Shown in pieces: positions 1-17,896 of a stretch of DNA of 20,000 bases; position 1 is the stretch's first letter, and every line of letters begins with the position of its first letter. A program made the position numbers and the translations under genes. Source of the DNA: Perkinsus olseni (taxonomy: Eukaryota). Location: assembly GCA_013115125.1 (NCBI GenBank), contig JABANN010000112.1, forward strand, positions 50,123-70,122. Reading direction: 5' to 3'. Below the pieces are notes generated by a model, which saw only the letters and a list, made by a program, of their open reading frames with translations, was not told where the DNA came from and did not search any database.

Positions 1-53
1 GGAACTCCGAAACGGGGGTCCCGGATTCGATTCCCACTGCCTGCATTCATTAC

Positions 54-1497: not shown

Positions 1498-1912
1498 TTC
1501 GGAAATGCAACCGTTTTAAATTGCAGAATTAAATCTAACAAATATAGGTTCAATGAAGGCACGCCAATTAGCGAGACTCCTGAAGGAACGAAGTGACCGG
1601 ACAGTTACTTCGGCAATGCGCTGAATAGTTCCTGTAGACCCCTCAATCACGGTGTGTTTGATCAAGCTGACTCCCGAGTTCATTAGAAAGGACTCCGACG
1701 AAGAAGTGGCGTAGCGCAGAAGAATGCACTTGGGAGTGCAGTGAAGCCCAGAAACCAATCCGGCTATCCCTTAGAGCAATGCAACTCCCACAGGCCAATC
1801 GTCACGCGCCACAAAACTCCTCCTGTTACATGGTCATAGTCAACACAATAGCAAGTGGATGAAACACAGAAACTCCCGGCGGTTTCAAACATGACAATCA
1901 CACCAGAAAACC

Positions 1913-3768
1913 TCACACAAACTCGACCTGAAGGAGTGATAGATTTACACAAAATAAGCGAGCATCAATCCTCGATTCAGTTGGTCCAGAACCGCACGGA
2001 GCTAGACGAATTTTGGAAGACTAGCCAATGACGATTTCAGATCCTTTTCACTAGGACCTATCCCAGAAAATCCGAATGAGTCCGTAGTCATTCCTCAATG
2101 ACATGGTAGTTGTATTCAATAACCCTTATTGAATAGCGCGATGACGGAATGATGTGGTATCATCCACAAGAGAGGTGAATTACCTGAGCCCCAGTGGACT
2201 CCATCTTCTTCTTGATCTCTTCAGCGTGCTCTAAAGGTACGCCTTTCTTGATAACCTGGCATTCACCAGGTGCATGAGTAGCGCACGAAAACTCATATCG
2301 ATTAACCGTTTCACAACTACTAACTGTTCTGGGACCCTAGAGGAACATATGTCTATCAAAGAGCTCCAACGGACTGCTGATGTAATTGGGTAAATTATTC
2401 CGCCCCTCCTCGATCTAATACCGTTGGACATCCTTCCACCGCATCCTTCGCCTCCCGAAGGCCAAGCCCAGTGACTGCTCGGACCTCCTTGATCGTCGTA
2501 ACCTAACAAATGCCATCTCCCAGATTCGAACCGGAGTCCTTTAGATTACCTTCTTCTCTGTATTGTAACTAACCAACTTGATTGTCACGACGCTCTTCGC
2601 AGGCTCTTTCTTCTTCTCGGCCGGCTTCTCCTCAGCCTCCCCACCTCCCTCCGCCGCTGTCGCTTCCCCTGAAACGCATCACACCAACCGTCCCACTCAA
2701 TTCTTATATTAACAAGGCCAGCTACCGGCAGGAGGCGAGGTCGGCTGCTGAGGAGCCCCGCCAGGCATCGGAGTGCCCATCATCATTGGCGAGGGTATCA
2801 TACCACCACCACCGAACATGGCCCCTGGATGGGGGAAGGGAGATCGGCCAGGGACACCTCCGGACCTGACAGGCCCTCTACCCCTTCACAACAGCTCATC
2901 AGATGATACTGCTATACAGCCTCCACAAGTAGTTGAAGAAAACCCATAGCACAGAACGCGTCGTTCTTGCGAACTATCATCGCCATTTATCATGTTACGA
3001 AGTGGCGGCTTGCCTCCAAGCCCACCCCGACGTTCTTGAGGAGGGATACAACCCGAGGAGCATTCCTCATGACCAAGCGTATTCTGCTTGAAACCTAAGG
3101 TGTCACTACCTGGCAGCGAGTTTCTCCTGACATAAGTCGCAGAGATCCGCAGCTTCAATAAGCGACAATGACAATATATCATCAACCAGTTTAATGACCT
3201 AGAAATACCCATCACGGGGTTCGAACCGGATACCATTCGATTACCTTATCAGACGGTTTTCGTTTCTTGGCTTCCCCAGGCGAAGCATCCATCTTTCCAT
3301 CTCCCTTATCTTTGATTTTCGCGAAGACGTCAAAGGAAGAGTCCCTGGCCGGCGCCTCAGCGCTGAATGCTCTCACTGCCGTTAACACGAGCGGAGCCTG
3401 AAGGGGATCTATCACCAAGATTCCGCCTGTACACAAGAGCTCCAGTAAAAGCGTTAGCTTTCCCGCTGTTAAAAGTTTTCCTTATACATCGCGCTGCACA
3501 CAATCAGTGATTGTACCAATTGGACTACAATCGCCAAGTCTCTCAGCACAAAGGGCGTCAGCCAACGCGCCAAGTTTACACACAACACGCTGGCTACACA
3601 CGATCAACAGACACTCAACGATCACACCGGAAGAAAAGTTGGGAAGAAGTACTTCCTGTGCACAATTTTAACGCATCGGATGAGTCCCCGCCCGCCTACC
3701 TGGTAGTATAACCGCCGAGAAATGGCAAAACAAGACCGACGGATAAGGGCTGTTGAGGAACACATCAT
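1913..3768 (-). CDS. MRPL12: Mitochondrial ribosomal protein L7/L12 (bL12m), 8 exons, about 245 aa. Exons 3768-3700, 3397-3245, 3198-3110, 2865-2726, 2668-2550, 2502-2422, 2255-2184, 1927-1913
   Basis: All junctions are GT-AG and phase-consistent (738 nt in total). The translation has an Arg/Ser-rich presequence ([35 protein letters not shown]), the L12 N-domain ([28 protein letters not shown]), a flexible hinge, and the L12 C-domain ([56 protein letters not shown]). Confidence 0.9.
2503..2549 (-). other. 47-nt spliceosomal intron consisting of a tRNA 3'-half-like sequence
   Basis: Sequence GTAATCTAAAGGAC-TCCGG-TTCGAAT-CTGGG-AGATGGC-A-TTTGTTAG. Removing it restores L7/L12 ([12 protein letters not shown]). 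Confidence 0.8.
3199..3244 (-). other. 46-nt spliceosomal intron consisting of a tRNA 3'-half-like sequence
   Basis: Sequence GTAATCGAATGGTA-TCCGG-TTCGAAC-CCCGT-GATGGGT-A-TTTCTAG. Removing it restores L7/L12 (PSDK|VIKLVDD). Confidence 0.8.
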
Positions 3769-5419
3769 GAGAAAAATATCAATAGAACATGGAGCAGCAT
3801 ATTAAAACAGACCATAAACGAGATGGTGTCCACCTGTACACGGAAGACTCACTCAATGTCCCGAGGGAGAACCTGGTCCTACGGACGAGTGCATTCGCCC
3901 CACTGACTCAACTAACGCGGAAGAACTTCTTCGTTCCTGGTTACATGTTGTGGTTCATAGTAAAGCATCAGAATAGGTTGCGATAGGACCTGGAGCGTTC
4001 GACTGATTGGAACGAAATGAGTTCCTCTGCCTGAAGTGGATACGAAGCGTCCGAGGTTTAGGTAGTTATCCCAATAGTAATCCTGAGTAATTTTTCGAGA
4101 AGGGTTTAACTATATTGTAGAAGCACGTTGCAGATCCCACTCCCTGCTTTTGGGACTCTTAACACACACGAGAGCCCGAAGAGATCTCTCTGATCGAGGG
4201 CTTATCAGCGAGTACTTTCCTCTTGCCTAGCAAAGATTCCTCAAACATACGCCACATGATGAAGTCACGTCGGTAAAGCTACCGCACAATGTGAAGCATC
4301 CTTTCAGCGTCATCCCACCTTTCGCGCAGAGATCCACGGCACTCCCGAGTCCCTATAGCTAACAGCAATATCTGGGCGGACTACAAATGAGACCAGCCAG
4401 ATAGGTGGTAGTGAGAGTAATGAGACCGCGCACAATACACCATACGCACTGTGTGGCATCCAACAGTACTTCAAGACAAGATCCCGAGTTCGAATCCCAG
4501 AAGGCCAATCCCAAATATATTCTTCAGTTCATATTCTACGCGCTGACTACGAACGCGTCTCAGTCGGGTCTCACAACAGCCTACGTGGCCGCTGCAGGGA
4601 AGCTCTGGTGAAGAGCACTCAAACTTCCACACGTTATTCGGCGATTCCGACACGGCGTATAATTAGACAGCATCCCCGAGCGGCAGGGTTCGGCGGGAGA
4701 CTTTGAGACAACTGATAGCGGGTCTGTCCGAGAGGCCGGCATCGGAAGACTCCTCACGAAGGAGTGGATTCATACGCGATCGAACCTCCCTGTGGCGGGC
4801 CTTGATCCGAACGAAGCAGGCCCTGCAAAAGGCGACGGGGTGAACCGCGGCGCCCGGCGGAGCCTCGTTAGAGTGATGTCACGAGAACCGATTGGTCCAA
4901 TTAAATCTGATCCGCCCTATATCGTATCTTGCGCGGGCAACTTCGTCAAGCTGCAAACCAAAAATCTTTCTAGGAGATTTCAAAAGCAAGAGGAGGGCAT
5001 ACAACGAGTTTCACTCTGTTAATTCGTAACCGTTGAGTATCTAAGCTTCAACCTTGCAGGATACAAAACAGGTCTGATCCAATTCCCACTCACTCGGAGG
5101 GGCTACTCTAACTGAGAGTTTCTAAGATCGGGATTGGATCAGGTCACTCTAACCCAGTTCACCATAAACCTTCCTTCATGCCGGTTCACTCTGAAGCTCG
5201 CTCAGGCCATTCTACCACCCGACTGGTCGACATAGTTCCCCATATCCCAAGCCCTCCACTTCGCGGCTCCAACAGGTCCAACCAAATGATTTCATCGCGA
5301 GACACAGCACACACAGCCTCCGTTGAGGAAATGCAAGATTGCAAGTGGTTATCGATAGCTAACTGGCATCGACGGCGAGAAAGCCTCAAGAGGCATTCAG
5401 TGACTTCTCCTCTGCCATA

Positions 5420-7600
5420 ATGAGCAGTGTCACATTAACTAACGTATTTTCTTTCGTGCCACCCGTGGTGGGTCTCTTGTGGGCCATCAAGGAGTTGGTC
5501 TATGTTCGCAGCATCAAGCTCGCCGGTCCCTACAAGGGCAAGAACGGCATGCAGGATTCCCTTGTCGCTGGTGATGCTCGTGATGTTCAGAAGATCCTCG
5601 TCGCCATGCGCGAGATCTCTTCCAACATCGCCGAGGGTGCCAATGCGTTCCTCGTCGCCGAGTACAAGTACATGATGGTCTACGTTGTTGTCTTCTCGAT
5701 CATCATCTGGCCCTGCATCGGTCTCGGTACCATGCTCTCTTTCGTCGTGGGTTCCCTCACTTCGATCGCTTGTGGTTACATTGGTATGAAGACTGCCGTC
5801 TACTGCAACGTTCGTACCGCCCACGAGTGCTGGAAGAGCCTCACCGACGGTTATGACGTCGCTCTCCGCGGTGGCTCCGTCATGGGTTTCGCCCTTGTGT
5901 CCTTGGCTGTCCTCAACTTGGCCATCCTCGTCACCATCTACAACATCCCCTCTCTCTACAACGGTGATCTTCGTGCTCTTTACGAGGCTCTCACCGGTTA
6001 CGGTTTGGGTGGTTCTTCCATCGCTCTCTTCGGTCGTGTCGGTGGTGGTATCTACACCAAGGCTGCCGATGTTGGTGCCGATCTCTCTGGCAAGAACGAG
6101 TACGGTCTTGATGAGGATGATCCGAGGAACCCCGGCTGCATCGCCGATAATGTTGGAGACAACGTCGGTGATATCGCCGGTATGGGTGCCGATTTGTTCG
6201 GTTCTTTCGCCGAGTCTACTTGCGCTGCTATGGTTATCTGCTCCGCTGCTCCCGATGCTCTTGTTTCCGGCAGCTGGTCCACCATGTTGTTCCCCTTGAT
6301 GGTCTCCTCTGTTGGTATCATCGTTGGTCTCGTCACCATGCTCACCGTTAACATCTTCTACAAGGTTAGGGTGATCGCTGATATCGAGAAGGCCCTTAAG
6401 GGTGTCCTGGTCATCTCCACCTCCTTGCAGACCCCTACCGTCGTTGCCCTCGCTTGGTGGGCTCTTCCCGCTGGCTACTTCGCCATCGACGAGGCTCATC
6501 CCGCCTGCTCCTGGGTCAAGTGTGCCGTCTGCATTCTCCTCGGTCTTTGGTCCGGTCTTTGCATCGGTTACACTACCGAGTACTACACTTCTCAGACCTA
6601 CAGACCCGTGCGTGAGATCGCCGAGTCTGAGGGTGTTTCTGCCGCTACTGGTATCATTTACGGTCTCGCCGCCGGTTACGTCTCTTGCATCGTTCCCGTC
6701 ATCTGCTTGGCTCTCACCATCTGCGTTGCCCATTCCGTCGCCGGTATGTTTGGTGTTGCTCTCGGTGCTCTTGGTATGCTCGGTACTCTCACCATGTCCC
6801 TCACCATCGATGCCTACGGTCCCATCTCGGATAACGCTGGTGGTATCGCTGAGATGTCTGAGTTGGGCCCTGAGGTCAGGGAGCGCACTGATGCCCTCGA
6901 TGCCGCTGGTAACACCACCGCTGCCATCGGTAAGGGCTTCGCCATCGGTTCCGCCGCTCTTGTGTCCCTCGCCTTGTTCGGTGCTTACTGCGTCCGCGCC
7001 AACATTTCCAAGGTTAACATTCTCGATCCCTGGACCTTCACCGGTCTTCTCTTCGGTGCTATGATGCCTTATGCCTTCTCTGCTATGACTATGAAGTCTG
7101 TCGGAAAGGCCGCCAACCAGATGGTTGAGGAGTGCATGTCGCAGTTCCCCAAGATCATCTCTGGTGAGATGAAGCCCAACTACACCAAGTGCATCAAGAT
7201 CGCCACCGACGCTTCTCTCATGGAGATGATCGCCCCTGGCTGCTTGGTCATCCTCTCCCCCCTCGTTGCCGGTCTTCTCTTCGGTAAGAACTGCACTGCC
7301 GGTCTCTTGTGTGGTGCTCTTGTCTCTGGTGTCCAGATGGCCATCTCCATGTCTAACACTGGTGGTGCTTGGGATAACGCTAAGAAGTTCATCGAAGCCG
7401 GGGGTCTTGGTCCCGAGTGCGGCAAGGGTTCTCAGGCTCACAAGAACGCCGTCACTGGTGATACCGTTGGGGACCCGCTCAAGGATACCTCTGGTCCCGC
7501 TATTAACATCGTTATTAAGCTTTCGGCCATCATGTCTCTCGTCTTCGGTGGCGTTATTGCCAAGACTTCCAACGAGAACGGTGGTCCTTTCTGGTTGTAA
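5420..7600 (+). CDS. VP1: Vacuolar/acidocalcisome H+-translocating pyrophosphatase, K+-dependent type, copy A (726 aa, intronless)
   Basis: Motifs GGGIYTKAADVGADLSGKNE, EDDPRNP, DNVGDNVGD, DAYGPISDNAGGIAEM, LDAAGNTTAAIGKG (Ala at the K+-determinant position), GGAWDNAKK and GDTVGDPLKD, with many hydrophobic helices. Confidence 0.97.
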   Translation: MSSVTLTNVFSFVPPVVGLLWAIKELVYVRSIKLAGPYKGKNGMQDSLVAGDARDVQKILVAMREISSNIAEGANAFLVAEYKYMMVYVVVFSIIIWPCIGLGTMLSFVVGSLTSIACGYIGMKTAVYCNVRTAHECWKSLTDGYDVALRGGSVMGFALVSLAVLNLAILVTIYNIPSLYNGDLRALYEALTGYGLGGSSIALFGRVGGGIYTKAADVGADLSGKNEYGLDEDDPRNPGCIADNVGDNVGDIAGMGADLFGSFAESTCAAMVICSAAPDALVSGSWSTMLFPLMVSSVGIIVGLVTMLTVNIFYKVRVIADIEKALKGVLVISTSLQTPTVVALAWWALPAGYFAIDEAHPACSWVKCAVCILLGLWSGLCIGYTTEYYTSQTYRPVREIAESEGVSAATGIIYGLAAGYVSCIVPVICLALTICVAHSVAGMFGVALGALGMLGTLTMSLTIDAYGPISDNAGGIAEMSELGPEVRERTDALDAAGNTTAAIGKGFAIGSAALVSLALFGAYCVRANISKVNILDPWTFTGLLFGAMMPYAFSAMTMKSVGKAANQMVEECMSQFPKIISGEMKPNYTKCIKIATDASLMEMIAPGCLVILSPLVAGLLFGKNCTAGLLCGALVSGVQMAISMSNTGGAWDNAKKFIEAGGLGPECGKGSQAHKNAVTGDTVGDPLKDTSGPAINIVIKLSAIMSLVFGGVIAKTSNENGGPFWL

Positions 7601-8246
7601 ACGCTGTTCGTATGCATATAGTAAAGCAATAGTACATTTACTTAGTCGCTGTTCCTGCCTTGTTCCTTTCCGATGTGTGTTCGGGTAGGTAGCCGTACAC
7701 TTTTCATCGTGGACTCCTTCATGTCGTGTTTGCAGTCGTCAAAAGGTGCCTGTTAAGGCTGAGGGTCACCAAGCTTTCAGGGAAGGATCGTCCTAGTTTA
7801 CTAGCCAGATGGTCCACAGAACTCACGGATAGCGGACTCTGCTCATCGCCTGGCTCGAGCACAGAGCTTGCCACAGTGATACTCTCAGTTCACTAGTATG
7901 GCAGCGGCAAGTTCTTAAACGAACAGAGCATGTTACGCTTGATGTGGAAGAGACATCTGTAACGAGAGAGAAAAAGGAGCTTACAAAACCATGGACGTAA
8001 GAAAGAATAAACTACCTTGGCGTCAGAACTAAAACTGCACTGAGAAAGACAGATTAGCCTTTGCTCATACTGTTCACCCTTATTGCATGTATGCTGATTA
8101 TACAGTCCTCCAGTAACGTTGAGAAGGCTAAGGCTGGTCAGCGATTCCACCAGAGCTTCTGTTGTGCATCGCTGCGCAGCCCAAGATATCATCATGGTGA
8201 AGATGGTTAAACCTCACACCGTTTGATCGTCTCATCCGTTTTGCAA

Positions 8247-10418
8247 ATGGCGAGCGTTCTTGCAACCAATTTGCTTGCTTTTATCCCACCTATACTAGGT
8301 GTCCTTTGGGCCCTTAAGGAGGTAACCTATGTTAGCCGTATCAAGCTATCCGGCCCTCCTTCGGGTATCCAAGCCTCGTTGATGGGCGACGGAAAGAAGG
8401 TCGACGTCCAGAAGATTCTCGAGCGCATGCGGGACATTTCGTCGCATATTGCGGAAGGTGCCAATGCGTTCCTCGTCGCCGAGTACAAGTACATGCTTGT
8501 TTATGTTGTTATCTTCTCGATTATCATCGGACCCTGCATCGGTCTCGGTACCATGATTGCCTTCATCGTGGGTTCCCTCACTTCCATTGCATGTGGCTAC
8601 ATTGGTATGAGGACCGCCGTCTATTGCAACGTTCGTACTACTCATGAATCCTGGAAGAACATTTCCGCTGGTTACGACGTTGCTATCCGTGGTGGTTCAG
8701 TCATGGGTTTCGCTCTTGTTTCCTTGGGTGTTTTTAATCTTTTCATCTTGGCCTTGATCTACTCCAAGTTCTACGGCAATAACGTTATTGCTCTTTATGA
8801 GGCTCTCACCGGTTACGGTTTGGGTGGTTCTTCCATCGCTCTCTTCGGTCGTGTCGGTGGTGGTATCTACACCAAGGCTGCCGATGTTGGTGCCGATCTC
8901 TCTGGCAAGAACGAGTACGGTCTTGATGAGGATGATCCGAGGAACCCCGGCTGCATCGCCGATAATGTTGGAGACAACGTCGGTGATATCGCCGGTATGG
9001 GTGCCGATTTGTTCGGTTCTTTCGCCGAGTCTACTTGCGCCGCCATGGTCATCTGCTCTGCCTCCCCTGAGGTCGCTGTGCACGGAAGCTGGTCGGCTAT
9101 GATGTTCCCCTTGCTTCTCTCTTCTGTCGGTATTCTTGTCGGTATTGTGACTTTGATGTCCGTTAATATCTTCTACAAGGTTCGTGAGATTAAGGATGTT
9201 GAGAAGGCTCTTAAGGGCATCCTTATCATCTCCACCACTATTCAGACCCCCGTGGCTATTCTCCTTGCCTGGTGGGCCCTCCCCAGTGGCCTCTTCGCCA
9301 TTGACGCCTCTCGTCTCCACTGCACTTGGTGGAAGTGCGCCATCTGCGTCCTTCTCGGTTTGTGGTCTGGTCTCTGCATCGGTAACATCACCGAGTATTT
9401 CACGTCCGACACTTACAAGCCCGTCCGTAGCATCGCTGATGCCGAAAAAATCTCCGCTGCTACTGGTATCATCATTGGTCTCGCCAGCGGATACGCTTCG
9501 ACCGTCATTCCCATCATCTGCTTGGCCATTACGATCTGCGTGGCATTCTCTCTCGCTGGTATGTTCGGTGTTGCTCTCGGTGCTCTTGGTATGCTCGGTA
9601 CTCTCACCATGTCCCTCACCATCGATGCCTACGGTCCCATCTCCGATAACGCCGGTGGTATCGCCGAGATGTCCGAGTTGGGCCCTGAGGTCAGGGAGCG
9701 TACCGATGCCCTCGATGCCGCTGGTAACACCACCGCTGCCATCGGTAAGGGCTTCGCCATCGGTTCTGCTGCCCTGGTGTCCCTCGCCTTGTTCGGTGCT
9801 TACTCTGTCAGAGCTGGCATCAACGTTGTTAGTCTTCTCGATCCCTGGACCTTCACCGGTCTTCTTTTCGGTGCTATGATGCCTTATGCCTTCTCTGCCA
9901 TGACTATGAAGTCTGTCGGAAAGGCTGCCAACCAGATGGTTGAGGAGTGCATGTCGCAGTTCCCCAAGATCATCTCCGGCGAGATGAAGCCCAACTACAC
10001 CAAGTGCATCAAGATCGCCACCGACGCTTCTCTCATGGAGATGATCGCCCCTGGCTGCTTGGTCATCCTCTCCCCGCTTGTTGCCGGTCTTCTCTTCGGT
10101 AAGAACTGCACTGCCGGTCTTTTGTGCGGCGCTCTCGTCTCTGGTGTCCAGTTGGCCATCTCCATGTCCAACACCGGTAGCTCCTGGGATAATTCCAAGA
10201 AGTTCATCGAGGCCGGGGGTCTTGGTCCCGAGTGCGGCAAGGGTTCTCAGGCTCACAAGAACGCCGTCACTGGTGATACCATCGGTGACCCGCTCAAGGA
10301 TACTTCTGGTCCCGCTATTAACATCGTTATTAAGCTTTCGGCCATCATGTCTCTCGTCTTCGGTGGCGTTATCGCCAAGACTTCCAACGAGCATGGTGGC
10401 CCCTTCTGGCTCAAGTAA
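8247..10418 (+). CDS. VP1: H+-translocating pyrophosphatase, copy B (about 723 aa from the ATG at 8247, intronless)
   Basis: Tandem paralog of copy A with the same catalytic motifs. The ATG at 8247 (MASVLATN) aligns approximately with the copy A start, so the track's TTG start at 8223 is unlikely. Confidence 0.95.
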   Translation: MASVLATNLLAFIPPILGVLWALKEVTYVSRIKLSGPPSGIQASLMGDGKKVDVQKILERMRDISSHIAEGANAFLVAEYKYMLVYVVIFSIIIGPCIGLGTMIAFIVGSLTSIACGYIGMRTAVYCNVRTTHESWKNISAGYDVAIRGGSVMGFALVSLGVFNLFILALIYSKFYGNNVIALYEALTGYGLGGSSIALFGRVGGGIYTKAADVGADLSGKNEYGLDEDDPRNPGCIADNVGDNVGDIAGMGADLFGSFAESTCAAMVICSASPEVAVHGSWSAMMFPLLLSSVGILVGIVTLMSVNIFYKVREIKDVEKALKGILIISTTIQTPVAILLAWWALPSGLFAIDASRLHCTWWKCAICVLLGLWSGLCIGNITEYFTSDTYKPVRSIADAEKISAATGIIIGLASGYASTVIPIICLAITICVAFSLAGMFGVALGALGMLGTLTMSLTIDAYGPISDNAGGIAEMSELGPEVRERTDALDAAGNTTAAIGKGFAIGSAALVSLALFGAYSVRAGINVVSLLDPWTFTGLLFGAMMPYAFSAMTMKSVGKAANQMVEECMSQFPKIISGEMKPNYTKCIKIATDASLMEMIAPGCLVILSPLVAGLLFGKNCTAGLLCGALVSGVQLAISMSNTGSSWDNSKKFIEAGGLGPECGKGSQAHKNAVTGDTIGDPLKDTSGPAINIVIKLSAIMSLVFGGVIAKTSNEHGGPFWLK

Positions 10419-11287
10419 ATGATGCCAATTCCTCCACAGACTCGATTCCGCATAATATTCGTATACTTTTGTGCGCGGCTTAGATTAGTGCTTACTTGGC
10501 TAGTATTGTTGCGTTAACTCAGTGGGGCGTAGAACATAAGACCGCCCTGAAGGCAAGCCCACCTATCGATCGGTTACTGCTCGGAAGAACACTCTCAATT
10601 GGTGTCGGAGACCAGGGTCGTGACATTGATTAACGACTGAGTCTAAACTGATCTTCTTGGTCGTAAGTTTCGGCGTGGCATTGCGTAGTAGAGTTGGGTA
10701 TCGACGACACTATCAACTGCTTGCCAGAACACAGACGAGGCCACCTTTTTGGAGGCGGGCGAGCCCGATGTCGACCATCTCGTCCGATTAGTTGCATTGA
10801 CTGCTCAACTTTCCCATTCTTATGACTTCCATGGCCGTTCTACCTCGTTCAATATCACGGTGAAATTTTCACCCGACTCATCGGCTTCTGTACACCGAGG
10901 ACTTCGGTGTGTGTGTGAGTTTAAAGTCCAACGCCGACAGTAGGGCTTAGTTAGACTAGCACCGACGTAGCTTTCTGAGGGGGATTAGTTCAGGCTCTTC
11001 TGATCAAACCAAAGAACGTTGCTCTCAGAGCGTGGTCATCGTCAGCTGGGGAATGTTCTTTCCTCCCGGCAGAATCCGCTTCCCACAGCTGCGGGGGCTG
11101 TGCACGACCACGAAACACTAGCCCATCCCGCAGTGTGTCGAACCACAAGCATCATCTCCGGCACTCGAAAAGTCCATACCCTGGCTAAGACTCCCTCTTA
11201 CCGAAAGCTGACATTCTTACTGGCAGAGGCACGTGAATCTAATATCATCCCCTCGCATTATGAATCGGTAAGACTTCGGTATACACA

Positions 11288-11319
11288 CGACACCTGAGAG
11301 ATTCGAACTCTCGCGGGCA
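11288..11319 (-). pseudogene. tRNA 3' fragment (Ser-like end: perfect T-arm plus acceptor strand)
   Basis: Minus strand reads TGCCCGC-GAGAG-TTCGAAT-CTCTC-AGGTGTC-G. No matching 5' acceptor strand (GACACCT) or D-arm lies upstream on that strand. Confidence 0.65.
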
Positions 11320-11392
11320 TGGCTACTCTCTGCTACCCAATGATAAAGGCGCACTTCTCGATGGCGAAAGGATTTGTACACCATTCTCAGTT

Positions 11393-11473
11393 GCCCGATT
11401 AGTTCAGCTGGATAGAAAGTCTGCCTAGCAGATGGTCAGCAGATGGTCGTGGGTTCGAATCCTGCATCGGGTA
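11393..11473 (+). pseudogene. Full-length tRNA-like cloverleaf with a disrupted anticodon loop (probable pseudo-tRNA; isotype undetermined)
   Basis: Acceptor stem GCCCGAT/ATCGGGT, D-arm TAGTTCAGCTGGATAGAAA, anticodon stem TCTGC/GCAGA around a 14-nt loop, T-arm GTGGG-TTCGAAT-CCTGC. A-box and B-box are recognisable. An 11-nt tandem duplication (AGCAGATGGTC x2) lies at 11427-11448. Confidence 0.7.
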
Positions 11474-12611: not shown

Positions 12612-13749
12612 TCAACGCTGGAGGATTCCTCCATTCCTAGAAGCTGCAGTGCTTGGCGTTGCTACAGCATCACGCCAACGTCCTCGAGGCGTCCATGGCT
12701 GATTCGTAAATGGGCCTCTCGCCGCCTTGCTAGGTCCGCGACCTATCAACCCATCTCCAGAGAAGACGGGGAGCCCTTTTGGTTCGGAATCTTCCTCTAC
12801 CATCTCTTGTGCCGCTCGCTCACAGGACGGACACAGCTCAGCACCTTGCGTCGGAGTGCAGCAGATAACGCACGTACCACTCTCTCGCGGGATCGCGTCC
12901 AGAAGTAGCTCTTGACAGGAGTGGCATATGCCATCGTTCTCGTCTATGCTAGCGTCCACGGGAGATCCACAAGTCACACATTTCCTTGTAGATGGTACGT
13001 GCTGTCTGAGAGGAGCAACACATTCACGACTCGGAACATATCAAGAAGGTTGAATAACGGTCAAGGCCGATCGGGTCCGGATAGTTACAAGGCGCACTGA
13101 ATGGAATGGTAGCGCATGAGAAGCGACTTCGGTGAGACAGTGAACGGTAGCAATCGTGTTGTTGAGAATGATACGATGCCCTCGTAACGAGGGTCGCGAC
13201 ATATGGCAGCAGCTCAGTCCAGTAGACGGTCTAAAATGCCTGACATGACTAGTGGGAATGCCAGGAAGGGAAGCACCTCATCATTCGCTGAGCATGCCCT
13301 AAGAAACCGAATTTGGCAAGATACGAGCCATCCTCACTTACGTGGCATGCGTGAAAGTCTCTATGGCGGACTTCAATGCTCTATTGGGGACAACACGTTG
13401 GCTTCTCAGTGGAGCGTTGGTGAGGGGATCGATCTTAGGTCTTCTGAAACTCATAATCAATAGTCCTTGGCGCCGATCACTGCCATCAGGTGCCAAGCCG
13501 AGCGTGCTAATCTTATCATGAGATTCGCGGATGGAGTGGTAGGAGATTCTCATACCACTCCATCCGCTAATCTTCTCCTCGGGTTCACCATGCAAGCTCC
13601 TACCTTTTGAAGGCATTTCTGAGTGCCGAGCGTTCGTAAGTGAAGCCGGTCTCGACTAGCGTGACGGGGTCGGTCATGAGCTCCTGTGTGATAGGACACT
13701 CGAAGGACTCCACCAGCTCCTTCAAAAGGGCCTCATCGTCACCATCCAT
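12612..13749 (-). CDS. U-box domain protein (putative E3 ubiquitin ligase) with downstream CxxC pairs. Exons 13749-13604, 13443-13342, and a large exon at about 13003-12612; middle exons and 3' end unresolved
   Basis: Spliced translation MDGDDEALLKELVESFECPITQELMTDPVTLVETGFTYERSALRNAFKR-RPKIDPLTNAPLRSQRVVPNRALKSAIETF matches the U-box consensus. The downstream exon has CVTC...CHSC and CVIC...CPSC; its linkage to the U-box exons is inferred. Confidence 0.75.
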
Positions 13750-14096: not shown

Positions 14097-15344
14097 TCAA
14101 TCTCTACTTCCACTTCGGCTCCTGTTTCTGCTGTCCTCTCTCACGCGCGACTTCGACTCCTTCCTCGGCGAATGGCTGTAAGATCTCGACGAAGACCTGC
14201 TCGAGCTGGGACTCCAACGGTCGCGGCTGTAGCTCCTCCGACGTTCTCTGAACCTCCTAGGAGACACCGGCTTCCTCCACCTCCCGCGCACCTCATCGCG
14301 GATACGACTCATCACGATCGAGCTGGGGTTGCGACAATCAGCGCGGATGAGCAGATCGGGCCCGAAGACACGAGAAAGCTGCTCCTGACTGAGCTCCCTC
14401 AATCTGTCCTCGCACTCCGCGTCCAGGCTGTAGCGATCGCACATATCAGATACCGACACTCTGTGGTGACGACTTCTACTTCTCGATCTCGATGACGATC
14501 TCGAGTAGGAACGATCCCTCGGTCGACGCCGACTCTCGCGCGCTGCCACCCTACGTCTGAAGGCCATATCATCTACCTTCCTCTGCACCACCCTCTTCAC
14601 GCGAATCCCCACATATTTCTGAGGAATTCTGATATCCCTTCTAGACCTGACATCCTGGTTGATCGAGTGGACCGTCTCGTAAAGGACGTCCTCGAGGAAC
14701 CTCCTGCCCGATCTGTCCAGTACCGAATACAACAATCTCATAGTCAAGGAATCGTCTAGGAAATCCTCAGCCTCCACAATACGTTGCTTGTGTATCGCAT
14801 CATCTACCACCTCTTCAATAACTTTATCCAAGTCCCCTCGGCTATCCGCGCGGTCCCTTCTCATCACCCTGGGCTTGGTTCTATCAACGTCACTCACGTC
14901 GCTGCTCGATTCTGATCTCGATCGAGAGTCTCTGCGCTCCTTAGGAGCTTCTTCCTCAGTGGCATCCTTTCTACTCGAAACTGACCTGCTGCGAGATCTC
15001 TTCTCATCACCTTCCTTCCCGTGGTCAACTCGGCGACTCTTCGATCGTGATTTCTCAACGCTCTTCGAGGCGGATCTATCAGCGACCTCCTTAGAACGAC
15101 TCTTTTCGACCGATCTCGAGCGGGAGTCCTTACGTTCCACAGAACGCTCGCGCTCTGAAGATTTGCGGTCAGCCGGAGAACGGTCTCTCGAGTCCGACCT
15201 GTCTCTCTTCTCAGATCGACCCTCCCTACGACCTTGACGAGATCCAGACCTCGAATAGCGCCTGAAGGCCTCCGAGCGACGACCACGACTGCTGCTGCGG
15301 CTTCTTCTGCTGCTCATGCTTCTGCTGCGACTCCTGCGGGCCAT
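14097..15344 (-). CDS. RS-rich protein, paralog 1 (415 aa, intronless), with two helical domains
   Basis: Long ATG-started ORF with RS/SR-rich termini. Its non-repetitive core is homologous to the two neighbouring ORFs. Confidence 0.85.
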   Translation of the reverse strand: MARRSRSRSMSSRRSRSSSRGRRSEAFRRYSRSGSRQGRREGRSEKRDRSDSRDRSPADRKSSERERSVERKDSRSRSVEKSRSKEVADRSASKSVEKSRSKSRRVDHGKEGDEKRSRSRSVSSRKDATEEEAPKERRDSRSRSESSSDVSDVDRTKPRVMRRDRADSRGDLDKVIEEVVDDAIHKQRIVEAEDFLDDSLTMRLLYSVLDRSGRRFLEDVLYETVHSINQDVRSRRDIRIPQKYVGIRVKRVVQRKVDDMAFRRRVAARESRRRPRDRSYSRSSSRSRSRSRHHRVSVSDMCDRYSLDAECEDRLRELSQEQLSRVFGPDLLIRADCRNPSSIVMSRIRDEVRGRWRKPVSPRRFRERRRSYSRDRWSPSSSRSSSRSYSHSPRKESKSRVREDSRNRSRSGSRD

Positions 15345-15681
15345 GATTTAGAAGATAGGGAGGAATGGAAGAAGTAGAAGAAGTTCTGCCACTCGACAGG
15401 ACCATAAGCCTGGATTGATCCCTGATGACGGCTTTCCGAGAGTCGCCCTCCTTCCCGAGGGGGCCAGACAAATGATTCCTACCTTACAGAGTAGCGATTA
15501 CTCGGTGCTGCATCATCTAAGGTAATGAAAGCAACCCAATGCGTATCCACCCAGGATCAACGTAAGATTCTCTCTCGCGTGAACTCGGCGAATCTCTCTT
15601 AGCTAGAAATATTAAACGTCCCCTACCATTGTCATAAAATCATACGTATCCAAGCTTGATGCGGCAAAGATACAAGACAGG

Positions 15682-16380
15682 TCAAGTTGACCGAGATCTA
15701 CTCCTGCAATAGCTTCTGCTTACCACGTCCGGCAATCTGCCCCGCATCTCATCTCTAATTCTGGCCATGATCAGACTGCTCACGTTCCTACAATCGCGAT
15801 GGATAATCAAATCACCTCCACACACTCGTTGTAGCTGCTCTTGATTCAACCTCTTCAGTCTCATCTCGCACTCAGCATCGACGCCGTACTTCCTGGCGAA
15901 CTCCTCCACGACAACTCTTCTACCAGGCTTCACACCAGACAATGATCGAGATCTCGAAGGCTCTCTTCGCCGCGCCCTTCTCGGCGACAACCCCATATCC
16001 CTTCTCCTAATAGACCGTTTCACTCGAGCCGCCACCAGCCGCCCTGGGTGGCTAACCTCCCTCCGACTACGGAAATCTCTCGAGATGGAATCGATCGCAT
16101 CATCAACGACCTCTTGGACGAAGTTGGGCCCGTGGATGCGAAAGCAATGAAGCAAGCTCTCCACCACATCTTGATCATCAGTAAAATCCTCAACGTAAAG
16201 GGTGATCCTCGAGTCCTTTAAACTGCCGTCAATGATATCCTCAACACGATCATACGACGATCGCGCACGCCCCGGTGATCGATTATCATTGTTATTCCTT
16301 GTTCTAGAGCGACTCCTACTTCTGTTGCTGCTGCTGCGACGGCTGCGACAACTCGAGCGAGACCTCGATCGGGAGGGCAT
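15682..16380 (-). CDS. RS-rich protein, paralog 2 (232 aa, intronless)
   Basis: Shares VEDFxDD...GxxFVxEVV...IxSIxxDxRSRREVxxP and YGVDAECExRLxxLxQEQLxRVxGxDLxIxxDCRNxSSxxMxRIRDExRGR with paralog 1. Confidence 0.85.
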   Translation of the reverse strand: MPSRSRSRSSCRSRRSSSNRSRSRSRTRNNNDNRSPGRARSSYDRVEDIIDGSLKDSRITLYVEDFTDDQDVVESLLHCFRIHGPNFVQEVVDDAIDSISRDFRSRREVSHPGRLVAARVKRSIRRRDMGLSPRRARRREPSRSRSLSGVKPGRRVVVEEFARKYGVDAECEMRLKRLNQEQLQRVCGGDLIIHRDCRNVSSLIMARIRDEMRGRLPDVVSRSYCRSRSRST

Positions 16381-16732
16381 TCCAAAGACGGTAGAAAACT
16401 GGCAAATATGTGTCCGACTCCAAAGCGTGAAACTTCGGGGGCAATCTCTCCAAGCTGAGACCTAGCTCTCGCATCGAACAACGTTAAGGGAGAACTTATG
16501 GACTAACTGTATGACGCTGAAGGAAAAGATCGGATAGCAACTTACCCATACGGTAGGAGGCTCGGATCATCGTCATCTCACGCCATCTTACCGAGACTCC
16601 TTAAGAGGCTAGATGGCATCTACTCAGGATGCAAGACAGAAGAAAAAATGGCCGAGAAGAAGCCTTCCTCCTCCTCCTGCTCACCCGCCCAGACGCAACA
16701 CCATCACATGCCTCAAAATCATCAACTACCGT

Positions 16733-17437
16733 CTACGAGCGAGACCTGCTCCTATGTCGCCTTCCACTCTTGGATCTCATATCCAGTCGGTCTTCTAAAC
16801 GCCTTCTGCCCTCCTCACCCTCCCCGATATCCTCACACACCTTCCGCAATTGACGTTGGGTCAGCGACCTCAACCTCTCCTCCATCCTATCATCACTAAT
16901 TTCACATTTTTCCATCAGTTTCGTCACCGAAATCTTCTTGGGTGGGCCCGACCTTCTCCGTTCATCTTCCATGTAGCGCATAATTCTATTGACTCTGATG
17001 CCGGCAAACTTGTGCGGTACTAAGATATCTCGACGATCTCTGACGTCGAAGCCGATAGAGTGCAGAACCTCCTCGATAAGCTCAACCACGAAGGAGCCGC
17101 CATATCTCGCATAACACCCCTCAAGATTCCTCATAGTCAACCTGTCCTCGATGAAATCTTCCAACTTCAAAAGATTCGTTTTTTCTACAGCGTGCGCAAC
17201 ACAGGCCTCCAGATCCTCTCTGTCGGCCCGGCGTCTCCGCTCCCTCGGATCGCTCGGCGATCTACCCCTCGATGGACTTCTCTTCTCAGCCGTATCTTTG
17301 ACCTCGGAAGATTCCTTCGGTGAATTGTCGGCCGACTTGGATGGCGTCCTCTTGCCGTTCACAGCGCTGCGGGACGGCGAGCTTCTACTCCTGCTTCGGC
17401 TGCTGCTGCTCCTGCTGCGGCTACTGCTGCGGGTCAT
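16733..17437 (-). CDS. RS-rich protein, paralog 3 (about 234 aa from the ATG at 17437, intronless)
   Basis: Starts MTRSSSRSRS. Core LEDFIEDRLTMRNLEGCYARYGGSFVVELIEEVLHSIGFDVRDRRDILVPHKFAGIRVNR aligns with the paralogs. The second domain is truncated or diverged. Confidence 0.8.
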   Translation of the reverse strand: MTRSSSRSRSSSSRSRSRSSPSRSAVNGKRTPSKSADNSPKESSEVKDTAEKRSPSRGRSPSDPRERRRRADREDLEACVAHAVEKTNLLKLEDFIEDRLTMRNLEGCYARYGGSFVVELIEEVLHSIGFDVRDRRDILVPHKFAGIRVNRIMRYMEDERRRSGPPKKISVTKLMEKCEISDDRMEERLRSLTQRQLRKVCEDIGEGEEGRRRLEDRLDMRSKSGRRHRSRSRS

Positions 17438-17896
17438 AGTCACGGCAACAATAAGCGCTGAAACGAATCTTGACGATCCGACACAATCACAATGAGGACG
17501 ATACCTCGACAAAGTCGCCTACTTCATACCACGGATCATGCAGTGTTGAACGGGACGACCTTAGATACTTCACGTACGGTACTGGAGAAGCTGAGAATTT
17601 CGGTCAGTAATCCGACGTTTTTCATATCCAGCGTTCCTTGACCTAGGATACCCTCTTGCGCTATCACGTATAAGCTAGAAAGGTCCTCGGATCAAATCTA
17701 TGCAGACCCATTCTGAAGTATCAGCGAGTTGCAGCATCCTTCGAGAACTCAACACGACGATAGGCGATGCAAGAGTAAGTACGGCGGTTGTAAGAAACGC
17801 AAATCGATCAACCGTTTCATATCTGCGCTCGAGAACAGTAAAAACTTGTCCGAATAGTTCAACGCAAGGATCGAACTATAGACGATATCATCACAA

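Follow-up and report, generated by a model that had tools for sequence, protein, structure and literature searches.

A spliced 47-nucleotide intron with the layout of a tRNA 3' half in the mitochondrial-type L7/L12 gene of Perkinsus olseni

The origin of new spliceosomal introns is an old open question, for which the known sources are transposon-like introners, filler DNA of repair and organelle DNA. The question is raised here by the gene for a mitochondrial-type ribosomal protein L7/L12 of Perkinsus olseni, found in a stretch of 20,000 nucleotides (nt) from contig JABANN010000112.1 of assembly GCA_013115125.1 (positions 50,123 to 70,122). This whole stretch is called the window and all positions refer to it. 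One of the introns of the gene, at 2503-2549 on the minus strand, is 47 nt long and reads from its first base like the 3' half of a transfer RNA (tRNA). The intron is probably derived from a tRNA gene, namely from its 3' half (tRNA positions 35-73) and its T-rich 3' trailer, and would now be an ordinary intron. A second intron of the same gene, 46 nt long, has the same layout in a weaker form.

The splicing of the gene was followed in contigs of four public runs over positions 1900-3800, and all seven introns are seen there as GT..AG joints in spliced contigs. For the 47-nt intron, each of the three RNA-type runs (X9, X11 and X8) supplies one contig with a joint that skips 47 bases (CT..AC on the plus strand, cut +2, which gives 2503-2549). 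The DNA run X1 has no contig with this joint and spans the region as a single unspliced piece. The RNA-type runs belong to three studies; X11 is on record as RNA, while X9 and X8 are RNA by a program guess only, and as all run data are contigs they show presence and not levels. No unspliced contig over either of the two short introns was found in the RNA-type runs, which is not counted as evidence beyond the joints themselves; the same applies to parts of the gene that no RNA contig covers.

Removal of the 47 nt restores an open frame of 245 amino acids with flanking exons that match the Pfam family Ribosomal_L12. The exon that follows the intron (2422-2502) corresponds to positions 14-38 of the Ribosomal_L12 C-domain (E=2.5e-9), the exon at 2184-2255 to positions 40-63 of the same domain (E=1.3e-4) and the exon at 3112-3198 to Ribosomal_L12_N (E=1.8e-4). 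The initial annotation of this DNA, made from the letters alone, had taken 2503-2549 to be an entire intron that interrupts the C-domain of L7/L12 at AAG|GTT. Both points hold, as the RNA contigs across the junction show exact removal in all three RNA-type runs and the joint lies between K190 and V191, directly before the exon with domain positions 14-38. The length of 47 nt is ordinary, because the introns of P. marinus are reported to measure between 39 and 1622 base pairs (bp), most of them less than 100 bp (PMC3101222). The element at 2503-2549 is an ordinary U2-type GT-AG spliceosomal intron which is removed exactly. The host gene is a nuclear gene for the mitochondrial ribosomal protein L7/L12, and the N-terminus of its product looks by eye like a mitochondrial presequence.

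The first 39 nt of the intron are co-linear with tRNA positions 35-73. They comprise the remaining bases of the anticodon loop, the 3' side of its stem, a variable loop of 5 nt, the T arm, a further 7 nt and a discriminator A. This is also the segmentation first proposed for the intron; the minus strand from 2549 to 2503 reads exactly so, and the Rfam alignment gives the same segments. The T arm has a stem of 5 bp, the pair G53-C61 and a 7-nt loop that fits TTCRANY.

The initial annotation had named the lack of a match to any tRNA or to the tRNA covariance model as a refutation, and the likeness to a tRNA 3' half is seen under two independent models. The Rfam tRNA model (RF00005) gives 16.1 bits on the isolated 47 nt, with model positions 34-71 of 71 aligned to intron bases 1-39 and the match cut at the 5' end; the E-value of 0.15 refers to 94 bases and 4227 families, and the gathering score is 29. 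The second model, R1, is a covariance model restricted to the 3' half (positions 35-73, with a paired T stem) and made from 31 class-I tRNAs of one unrelated bacterial genome. It was run on both strands of the whole window with filters off, and it matches 2511-2549 on the minus strand with 20.6 bits (E=3.5e-4), without gaps, over positions 1-39 of its 39 and from the donor G onwards. Among the 19 R1 matches listed the 47-nt intron is second, behind the true tRNA gene of the window.

The E-values of R1 are rough according to a warning of the program, and three controls were therefore added, consisting of shuffles, real DNA and the flanks only. A separate gapless profile, obtained from the same alignment as R1, provided a second scoring. 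The intron scores 18.7 with this profile, which is reached by one of 300 dinucleotide-preserving shuffles of the window (mean of the null maximum 5.8, standard deviation 3.5). On real bacterial DNA, 86.6 kb surrounding the tRNAs used for training, R1 gives no more than 16.1 bits outside tRNAs, below the 20.6 bits of the intron; real tRNA halves score 24.5-43.9 bits in training and 30.7 bits for the tRNA of the window. When the T arm is left out, columns 1-14 of the intron give 8.9 bits (p=0.0004 over all window positions), which is as good as the real tRNA of the window (8.3 bits). Judged on these scores the tRNA likeness is real and extends from the T arm to the first base of the intron, which would be a decayed relative rather than a working tRNA. 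A functional tRNA gene at 2503-2549 was rejected, as there is no full cloverleaf, the Rfam score of 16.1 bits compares with a gathering score of 29, and ARAGORN calls no tRNA at the intron.

The 46-nt intron (3199-3244) is likewise spliced, with its joint in all three RNA-type runs and in no contig of X1. R1 matches it at 3206-3244 on the minus strand (13.2 bits, E=0.054), with model positions 1-39 starting at the first base of the intron. The gapless profile gives 15.5, and such hits are expected 0.007 times per shuffled window; the 5' flank of the T arm gives 4.2 bits (p=0.006). The first six bases are identical in the two introns, an exact 11-mer is common to both at the same offset and has only two matches in the window even with one mismatch allowed, and 35 of 48 aligned columns are identical. 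The 47-nt exon flanks of the two introns do not align (24/51 and 20/49 identical, scores -9 and -12). Of the 21 possible intron pairs in the gene this is the only one with a local score above 13. The remaining five introns have only GTA and YAG in common with the two, and none of the five is among the 19 R1 matches listed.

A comparison of five tRNA-like sequences of the window, with the T loop left out, shows the two introns alike in 17 of 28 columns, compared with 8-15 for the nine other pairs. They are each other's closest among the five, and the comparison therefore leans towards a common source. Taken alone the 46-nt intron is a weak case; it counts because its tRNA register is shared with the intron start and because of its likeness to the 47-nt intron. 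We infer the same tRNA 3'-half origin for both. The short block common to the two, about 13 bases before the acceptor, may by inspection be a branch site.

Some further observations concern the exons and the first intron of the gene. The exon at 3112-3198 (minus strand), which follows the 46-nt intron, has a second, weak match to positions 15-39 of the L12 C-domain (E=0.028), and these positions nearly coincide with positions 14-38 found in the exon after the 47-nt intron (2422-2502). Both tRNA-like introns thus stand directly 5' of exons with similar peptide motifs, and the DNA of these exons is not similar. Within intron 1, some 35 bases at 3526-3560 are highly repeated in the DNA run X1, with a summed depth of 939 compared with 82.6 in the flanks. 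At least six other contigs match these bases with 1-3 mismatches, and several loose ends occur on both sides. The segment is a short dispersed repeat.

The sequence of the 47-nt intron has at least one other genomic copy. Another contig of X1, 28.3 kb long, contains 33 bases of it (2523-2555, comprising six exon bases and the first 27 intron bases) with one mismatch. In a further X1 contig the match ends at 2550 and is followed by unrelated sequence; this contig is absent from the depth table and is a hint only. On our reading, the 30 letters upstream of both matches, at the loose ends, would be unable to form a tRNA 5' half. No extra contig matches the 46-nt intron at 85% likeness. A search of the window by nhmmer with the two introns gave no third member, the next match being the tRNA gene (E=0.8). 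A GT..AG segment at 11118-11164 (minus strand), at first ranked with the introns, was discarded, since its alignment is unconvincing and it is not among the R1 matches listed. A degenerate family pattern of 25 nt had one match each in metagenome contigs and in prokaryote genome contigs, both in one and the same coding stretch of high-GC bacterial DNA, which has no tRNA. These two matches are due to chance, as expected for a pattern of 25 nt.

Pieces that resemble tRNA are found elsewhere in the window too (Table 1). The gapless profile finds four non-tRNA 3'-half-like stretches with a score of at least 15.0; about 0.007 at 15.5 or more are expected per shuffle. Full T-arm hairpins number three, compared with 0.34 expected. 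The motif RGTTCGANNCY, which we take to be B-box-like, is present eight times where 0.72 are expected (about 11-fold), a count that none of 200 shuffles reaches, and five of the eight sites are outside the tRNA gene and the two introns. The bare hexamer GTTCGA is not enriched (15 found, 13.4 expected), and eight of these 15 cores are part of the full motif. Debris of tRNA-like sequence is common in the window.

The fragment at 4470-4508 has no convincing open reading frame around it. It is preceded by GTAC and followed after 19 bases by a pyrimidine run with CAG, and there is no evidence of splicing. The hairpin at 11293-11312, about 80 bases upstream of the tRNA gene and on the opposite strand, shows the score of a T arm alone: Rfam gives 11.0 bits (E=6.4) in isolation, the flanks have p=0.32, and the columns 5' of the arm (11288-11326) give -8.6 bits (p=0.39). 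The R1 match at 7393-7424 is probably spurious. The full tRNA gene itself has a 14-nt anticodon-loop region with an 11-base tandem duplication. Rfam leaves 11 bases of the gene unaligned and ARAGORN calls Leu(CAG) with a shifted acceptor; the gene may carry a 7-nt intron.

Table 1. Positions of the L7/L12 gene, its two tRNA-like introns and the other tRNA-like features in the window
Feature	Position	Strand	Details and evidence
Host gene, mitochondrial-type ribosomal protein L7/L12, coding span	1913..3768	-	245 amino acids, 8 exons, 7 GT-AG introns; spliced joints, translation, Pfam on single exons
47-nt GT-AG intron, intron 5 of 7, phase 0, between K190 and V191	2503..2549	-	joint in 3/3 RNA-type runs; frame restored
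tRNA 3'-half-like part, tRNA positions 35-73, begins at donor GT	2511..2549	-	Rfam tRNA; 3'-half model R1; shuffles; 5' flank test
T-arm-like hairpin, 5/5 pairs (two G-U), 7-nt loop of canonical T-loop pattern; also a B-box-like motif match; one of the three full T-arm hairpins	2519..2535	-	
8-nt T-rich tail after discriminator A, ends in acceptor AG, no CCA	2503..2510	-	sequence; acceptor use from joint
Second tRNA-like intron, 46 nt, intron 2 of 7, phase 0, between K74 and V75	3199..3244	-	same layout from base 1, T stem 3/5 pairs
Full tRNA gene, the only one of the window, comparator	11393..11473	+	Rfam 45.7 bits; ARAGORN; R1 30.7 bits, E=3.3e-7, model 1-39 on 11435-11473
tRNA 3'-half-like fragment in the spacer between L7/L12 and the first pyrophosphatase gene (divergent genes)	4470..4508	+	R1 15.5 bits, E=0.011, model 1-39; profile 17.1; flanks p=0.0013
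tRNA 3'-half-like fragment at the window edge, 5' side cut off by the window	7..45	+	R1 11.5 bits, E=0.17; profile 15.0; flanks p=0.00025
Perfect T-arm hairpin, 5/5 pairs, canonical loop, no other tRNA-like flank	11293..11312	-	R1 14.0 bits, E=0.032, model 15-34 only
R1 match inside the first pyrophosphatase coding frame, T loop missing (probably spurious)	7393..7424	+	13.9 bits, E=0.033, model 1-39
B-box-like motif sites	2522, 3217, 4487, 11299, 11452, 17867, 18550, 19024		

A number of results weigh against descent from a tRNA gene, and part of them would suit an explanation by chance or convergence, in which an ordinary short intron happens to contain a T-arm-like hairpin with a few flanking matches and the second intron is alike from the same splicing constraints. 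The absolute scores are modest, falling short of the gathering score (29) and of all real tRNA halves tested. Rfam finds no tRNA at the 47-nt intron within a context of 1.6 kb (2000-3600) or in the whole window, and has no match on the 46-nt intron even alone. The needs of splicing overlap the tRNA register, as the GTAA start and the end with a T-run and AG are also favoured by splicing alone. Neither intron folds better than its shuffles (z=0.45 for 47 nt and -0.78 for 46 nt), and the fold predicted for the 47-nt intron differs from the T arm; this test is uninformative on origin, because the 3' half of a real tRNA alone behaves likewise. The case came out of a search for patterns over many windows, a very large scan that brings some selection bias.

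Other results on the same side concern the two introns and their possible source. The eight 3' columns for the acceptor strand and discriminator carry no tRNA signal in the profile (p=0.25 and 0.16), the columns of the 3' acceptor strand being its least informative. The 13.2 bits of the 46-nt intron lie within the non-tRNA range of GC-rich control DNA, where the 86.6 kb give six hits of at least 13.1 bits, one of them at a site chosen by pattern beforehand. The tRNA gene of the window is identical to the two introns in 23/39 and 25/39 positions, no better than bacterial tRNAs, and no source tRNA gene was identified. Of the 14 columns that differ between the introns, one intron matches the tRNA of the window in eight, which is about chance. 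Finally, the 26/39 identity between the introns does not exceed what unrelated tRNA halves have (mean 22.2, with 11.7% of 325 pairs at 26 or more). Direct copying between the introns is not established, because unrelated tRNA halves are often equally similar, and the similarity of the two (z about 6 compared with shuffles) was withdrawn as proof of it.

Chance or convergence is nevertheless considered unlikely as an explanation of the whole. Only one shuffle in 300 reaches the score of the 47-nt intron, which has E=3.5e-4 in the window, and when the flanks alone are tested, at the one position that the T arm dictates, the two introns have p=0.0004 and 0.006. The other five introns, under the same splicing constraints, share only GTA and YAG and are not matched by R1. 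The 11-mer of the two introns is no general splicing signal, with two matches in the window.

Two further explanations have each a low probability. The first supposes old intron positions inside which a tRNA-derived repeat landed, after which the introns shrank to about 47 nt. The fragment outside genes at 4470-4508 shows that the dispersal of such pieces does not depend on introns. In both introns the very first base already belongs to the tRNA-like part and only 7-8 nt are left at the end, so that no room remains for older sequence, and two independent events with exact trimming are less economical.

The second supposes that the core of the introns is kept for a present action, for example as a B-box-type site for TFIIIC (RNA polymerase III) or as another intronic signal. 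It would account for the longest identical block of the introns, 11 nt, which covers the B-box-like motif, and for the excess of that motif in the window, with over half of the GTTCGA cores in its full form. A run of 11 identities is not unusual, being present in 15% of 325 pairs of tRNA halves, and the T stem is decayed in the 46-nt intron, with three of five pairs. No separate small transcript was seen, though contigs cannot show one.

It is very improbable that a mature tRNA half, released by a cut in the anticodon loop, at which such halves start, entered the gene as a DNA copy, as a mature half is expected to end in CCA whereas a T-rich trailer directly follows the discriminator in both introns and both other fragments, and as the 5' end in the anticodon loop is equally explained by the need for GT.

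A retro-copy of a mature tRNA half was rejected on the same grounds, with discriminator A followed by a T-run and no CCA in both introns. The source is more likely to have been a tRNA gene or its precursor than a mature half, because CCA is lacking after the discriminator and a T-rich trailer stands in its place. The initial annotation had seen in the donor GT the start of an anticodon-loop cleavage product, which is not favoured given this genomic-style trailer; its second proposal for the ends, that the T tail doubles as the pyrimidine tract, agrees with the T-rich tail of 8 nt that ends in the acceptor AG in use. The trailers of both introns resemble the trailer of the window's own tRNA gene.

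Descent from the 3' half of a tRNA gene would have taken the following course. A DNA copy of the 3' half with its trailer would land at an AG|GT site of a coding sequence and be kept because its own splice signals come along. The donor GT would be supplied by bases 35-36 of the former anticodon loop, where an NGU-type anticodon with A37 and A38 would give GTAA, and the pyrimidine run and acceptor AG would come from the trailer. The T arm would be carried along as a fossil, and we infer that the tRNA-like part is now without tRNA function. The 46-nt intron could be a copy of the 47-nt intron, for instance through reverse splicing into a further AG|GT site in that transcript, or could stem from the independent capture of a similar piece of tRNA. 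A GT at positions 35-36 would suit an NGU (Thr-type) anticodon rather than the tRNA-Phe that the intron had been thought to resemble. The closest to the 47-nt intron among 26 gap-free bacterial halves is a tRNA-Thr, with 25/39 positions identical.

By analogy the two introns would work like an introner or a filler-DNA intron. Introners and introner-like elements are sequence-similar introns at unrelated positions, found in Micromonas, Aureococcus, fungi and dinoflagellates including the related Amoebophrya (PMC7789003). As with introners, the two introns are far more alike than their exons, at least one further genomic copy exists and the sites are AG|GT. Unlike introners they amount to two copies in the window and one or two partial contig matches instead of hundreds, they are only 46-47 nt long and their body is tRNA-like. 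No terminal inverted repeats or target duplications were seen by eye in the two intron sequences, where only the generic AG|GT is repeated at the ends. An introner of transposon type, for which inverted repeats and target duplications are required, was rejected as neither was recognized by eye.

Introns are known to arise from inserted foreign or filler DNA, as in a spliceosomal intron of mitochondrial DNA origin and in the repair-associated new introns of Daphnia. There, as here, an unrelated genomic piece with usable splice sites becomes an intron at a protosplice site. The difference is that the donor would be half of a tRNA gene, seemingly used at least twice in one gene.

Fragments of tRNA pseudogenes, repeats of the type of tRNA-derived short interspersed elements (SINEs) and B-box-only sites of a polymerase III factor are a third comparison. 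In common with these, the introns have a T arm, a B-box-like core, remnants of the variable and anticodon loops and a discriminator with T-rich trailer, and several such pieces are scattered in the window. They differ in that the piece is exactly an intron, transcribed within an mRNA precursor, and that no 5' half and no A box are recognized in register. A tRNA-derived SINE, in which a tRNA-related 5' head with an A box and a B box precedes a body and a tail, was rejected, as a coding exon without a tRNA 5' half lies upstream and Rfam and ARAGORN are negative.

The genome of P. marinus is reported to have more than 500 gene copies of five tRNA types together with the tRNA-targeting Dada DNA transposons, elements of 4.7-11 kb that insert in the A-box region of tRNA genes (PMC3706591). 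The Dada transposons show a Perkinsus lineage with an unusual wealth of tRNA genes and of mobile DNA associated with these, and they have no direct link to the two introns. A literature search, which did not cover supplements, found no report of tRNA-derived spliceosomal introns or of introners in Perkinsus.

The tRNA-like introns are accompanied in the window by several other genes. Two tandem intronless genes for proton-pumping pyrophosphatases are located at 5420-7600 and 8211-10418, both on the plus strand. Two proteins named from P. marinus share 96% (over 726 residues; from ATCC 50983) and 76% identity with the product of the first. Three neighbouring long open reading frames on the minus strand (14097-15347, 15682-16461 and 16733-17518) encode arginine/serine-rich proteins with a similar central region and have the appearance of a tandem family. 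At 13516-13582 there is a near-perfect hairpin, about 30 bp long, which weakly matches three unrelated microRNA families on both strands, in every case far below the cut-off.

These data bear on how introns are gained, since a verified intron runs co-linear with a defined part of a tRNA gene from its very start, and so does another intron of that gene. The two may belong to a propagating class of mini-introns of about 46-47 nt in this Perkinsus lineage, derived from the 3' half and trailer of an NGU-type tRNA gene and spread to new AG|GT sites, twice in this gene, by reverse splicing or repair-mediated copying; this larger proposal is tentative and rather doubtful, and under it tRNA genes would be a recurrent source of introns. 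Annotators could take such introns and fragments for tRNA pseudogenes or polymerase III sites. The host lineage has more introns than the related dinoflagellates, and hundreds of tRNA gene copies are reported for it. If the relation is true genome-wide, the halves of tRNA genes would be a concrete and easily recognized source of introns, and the timing and mechanism of intron gain would be testable across Perkinsus species.

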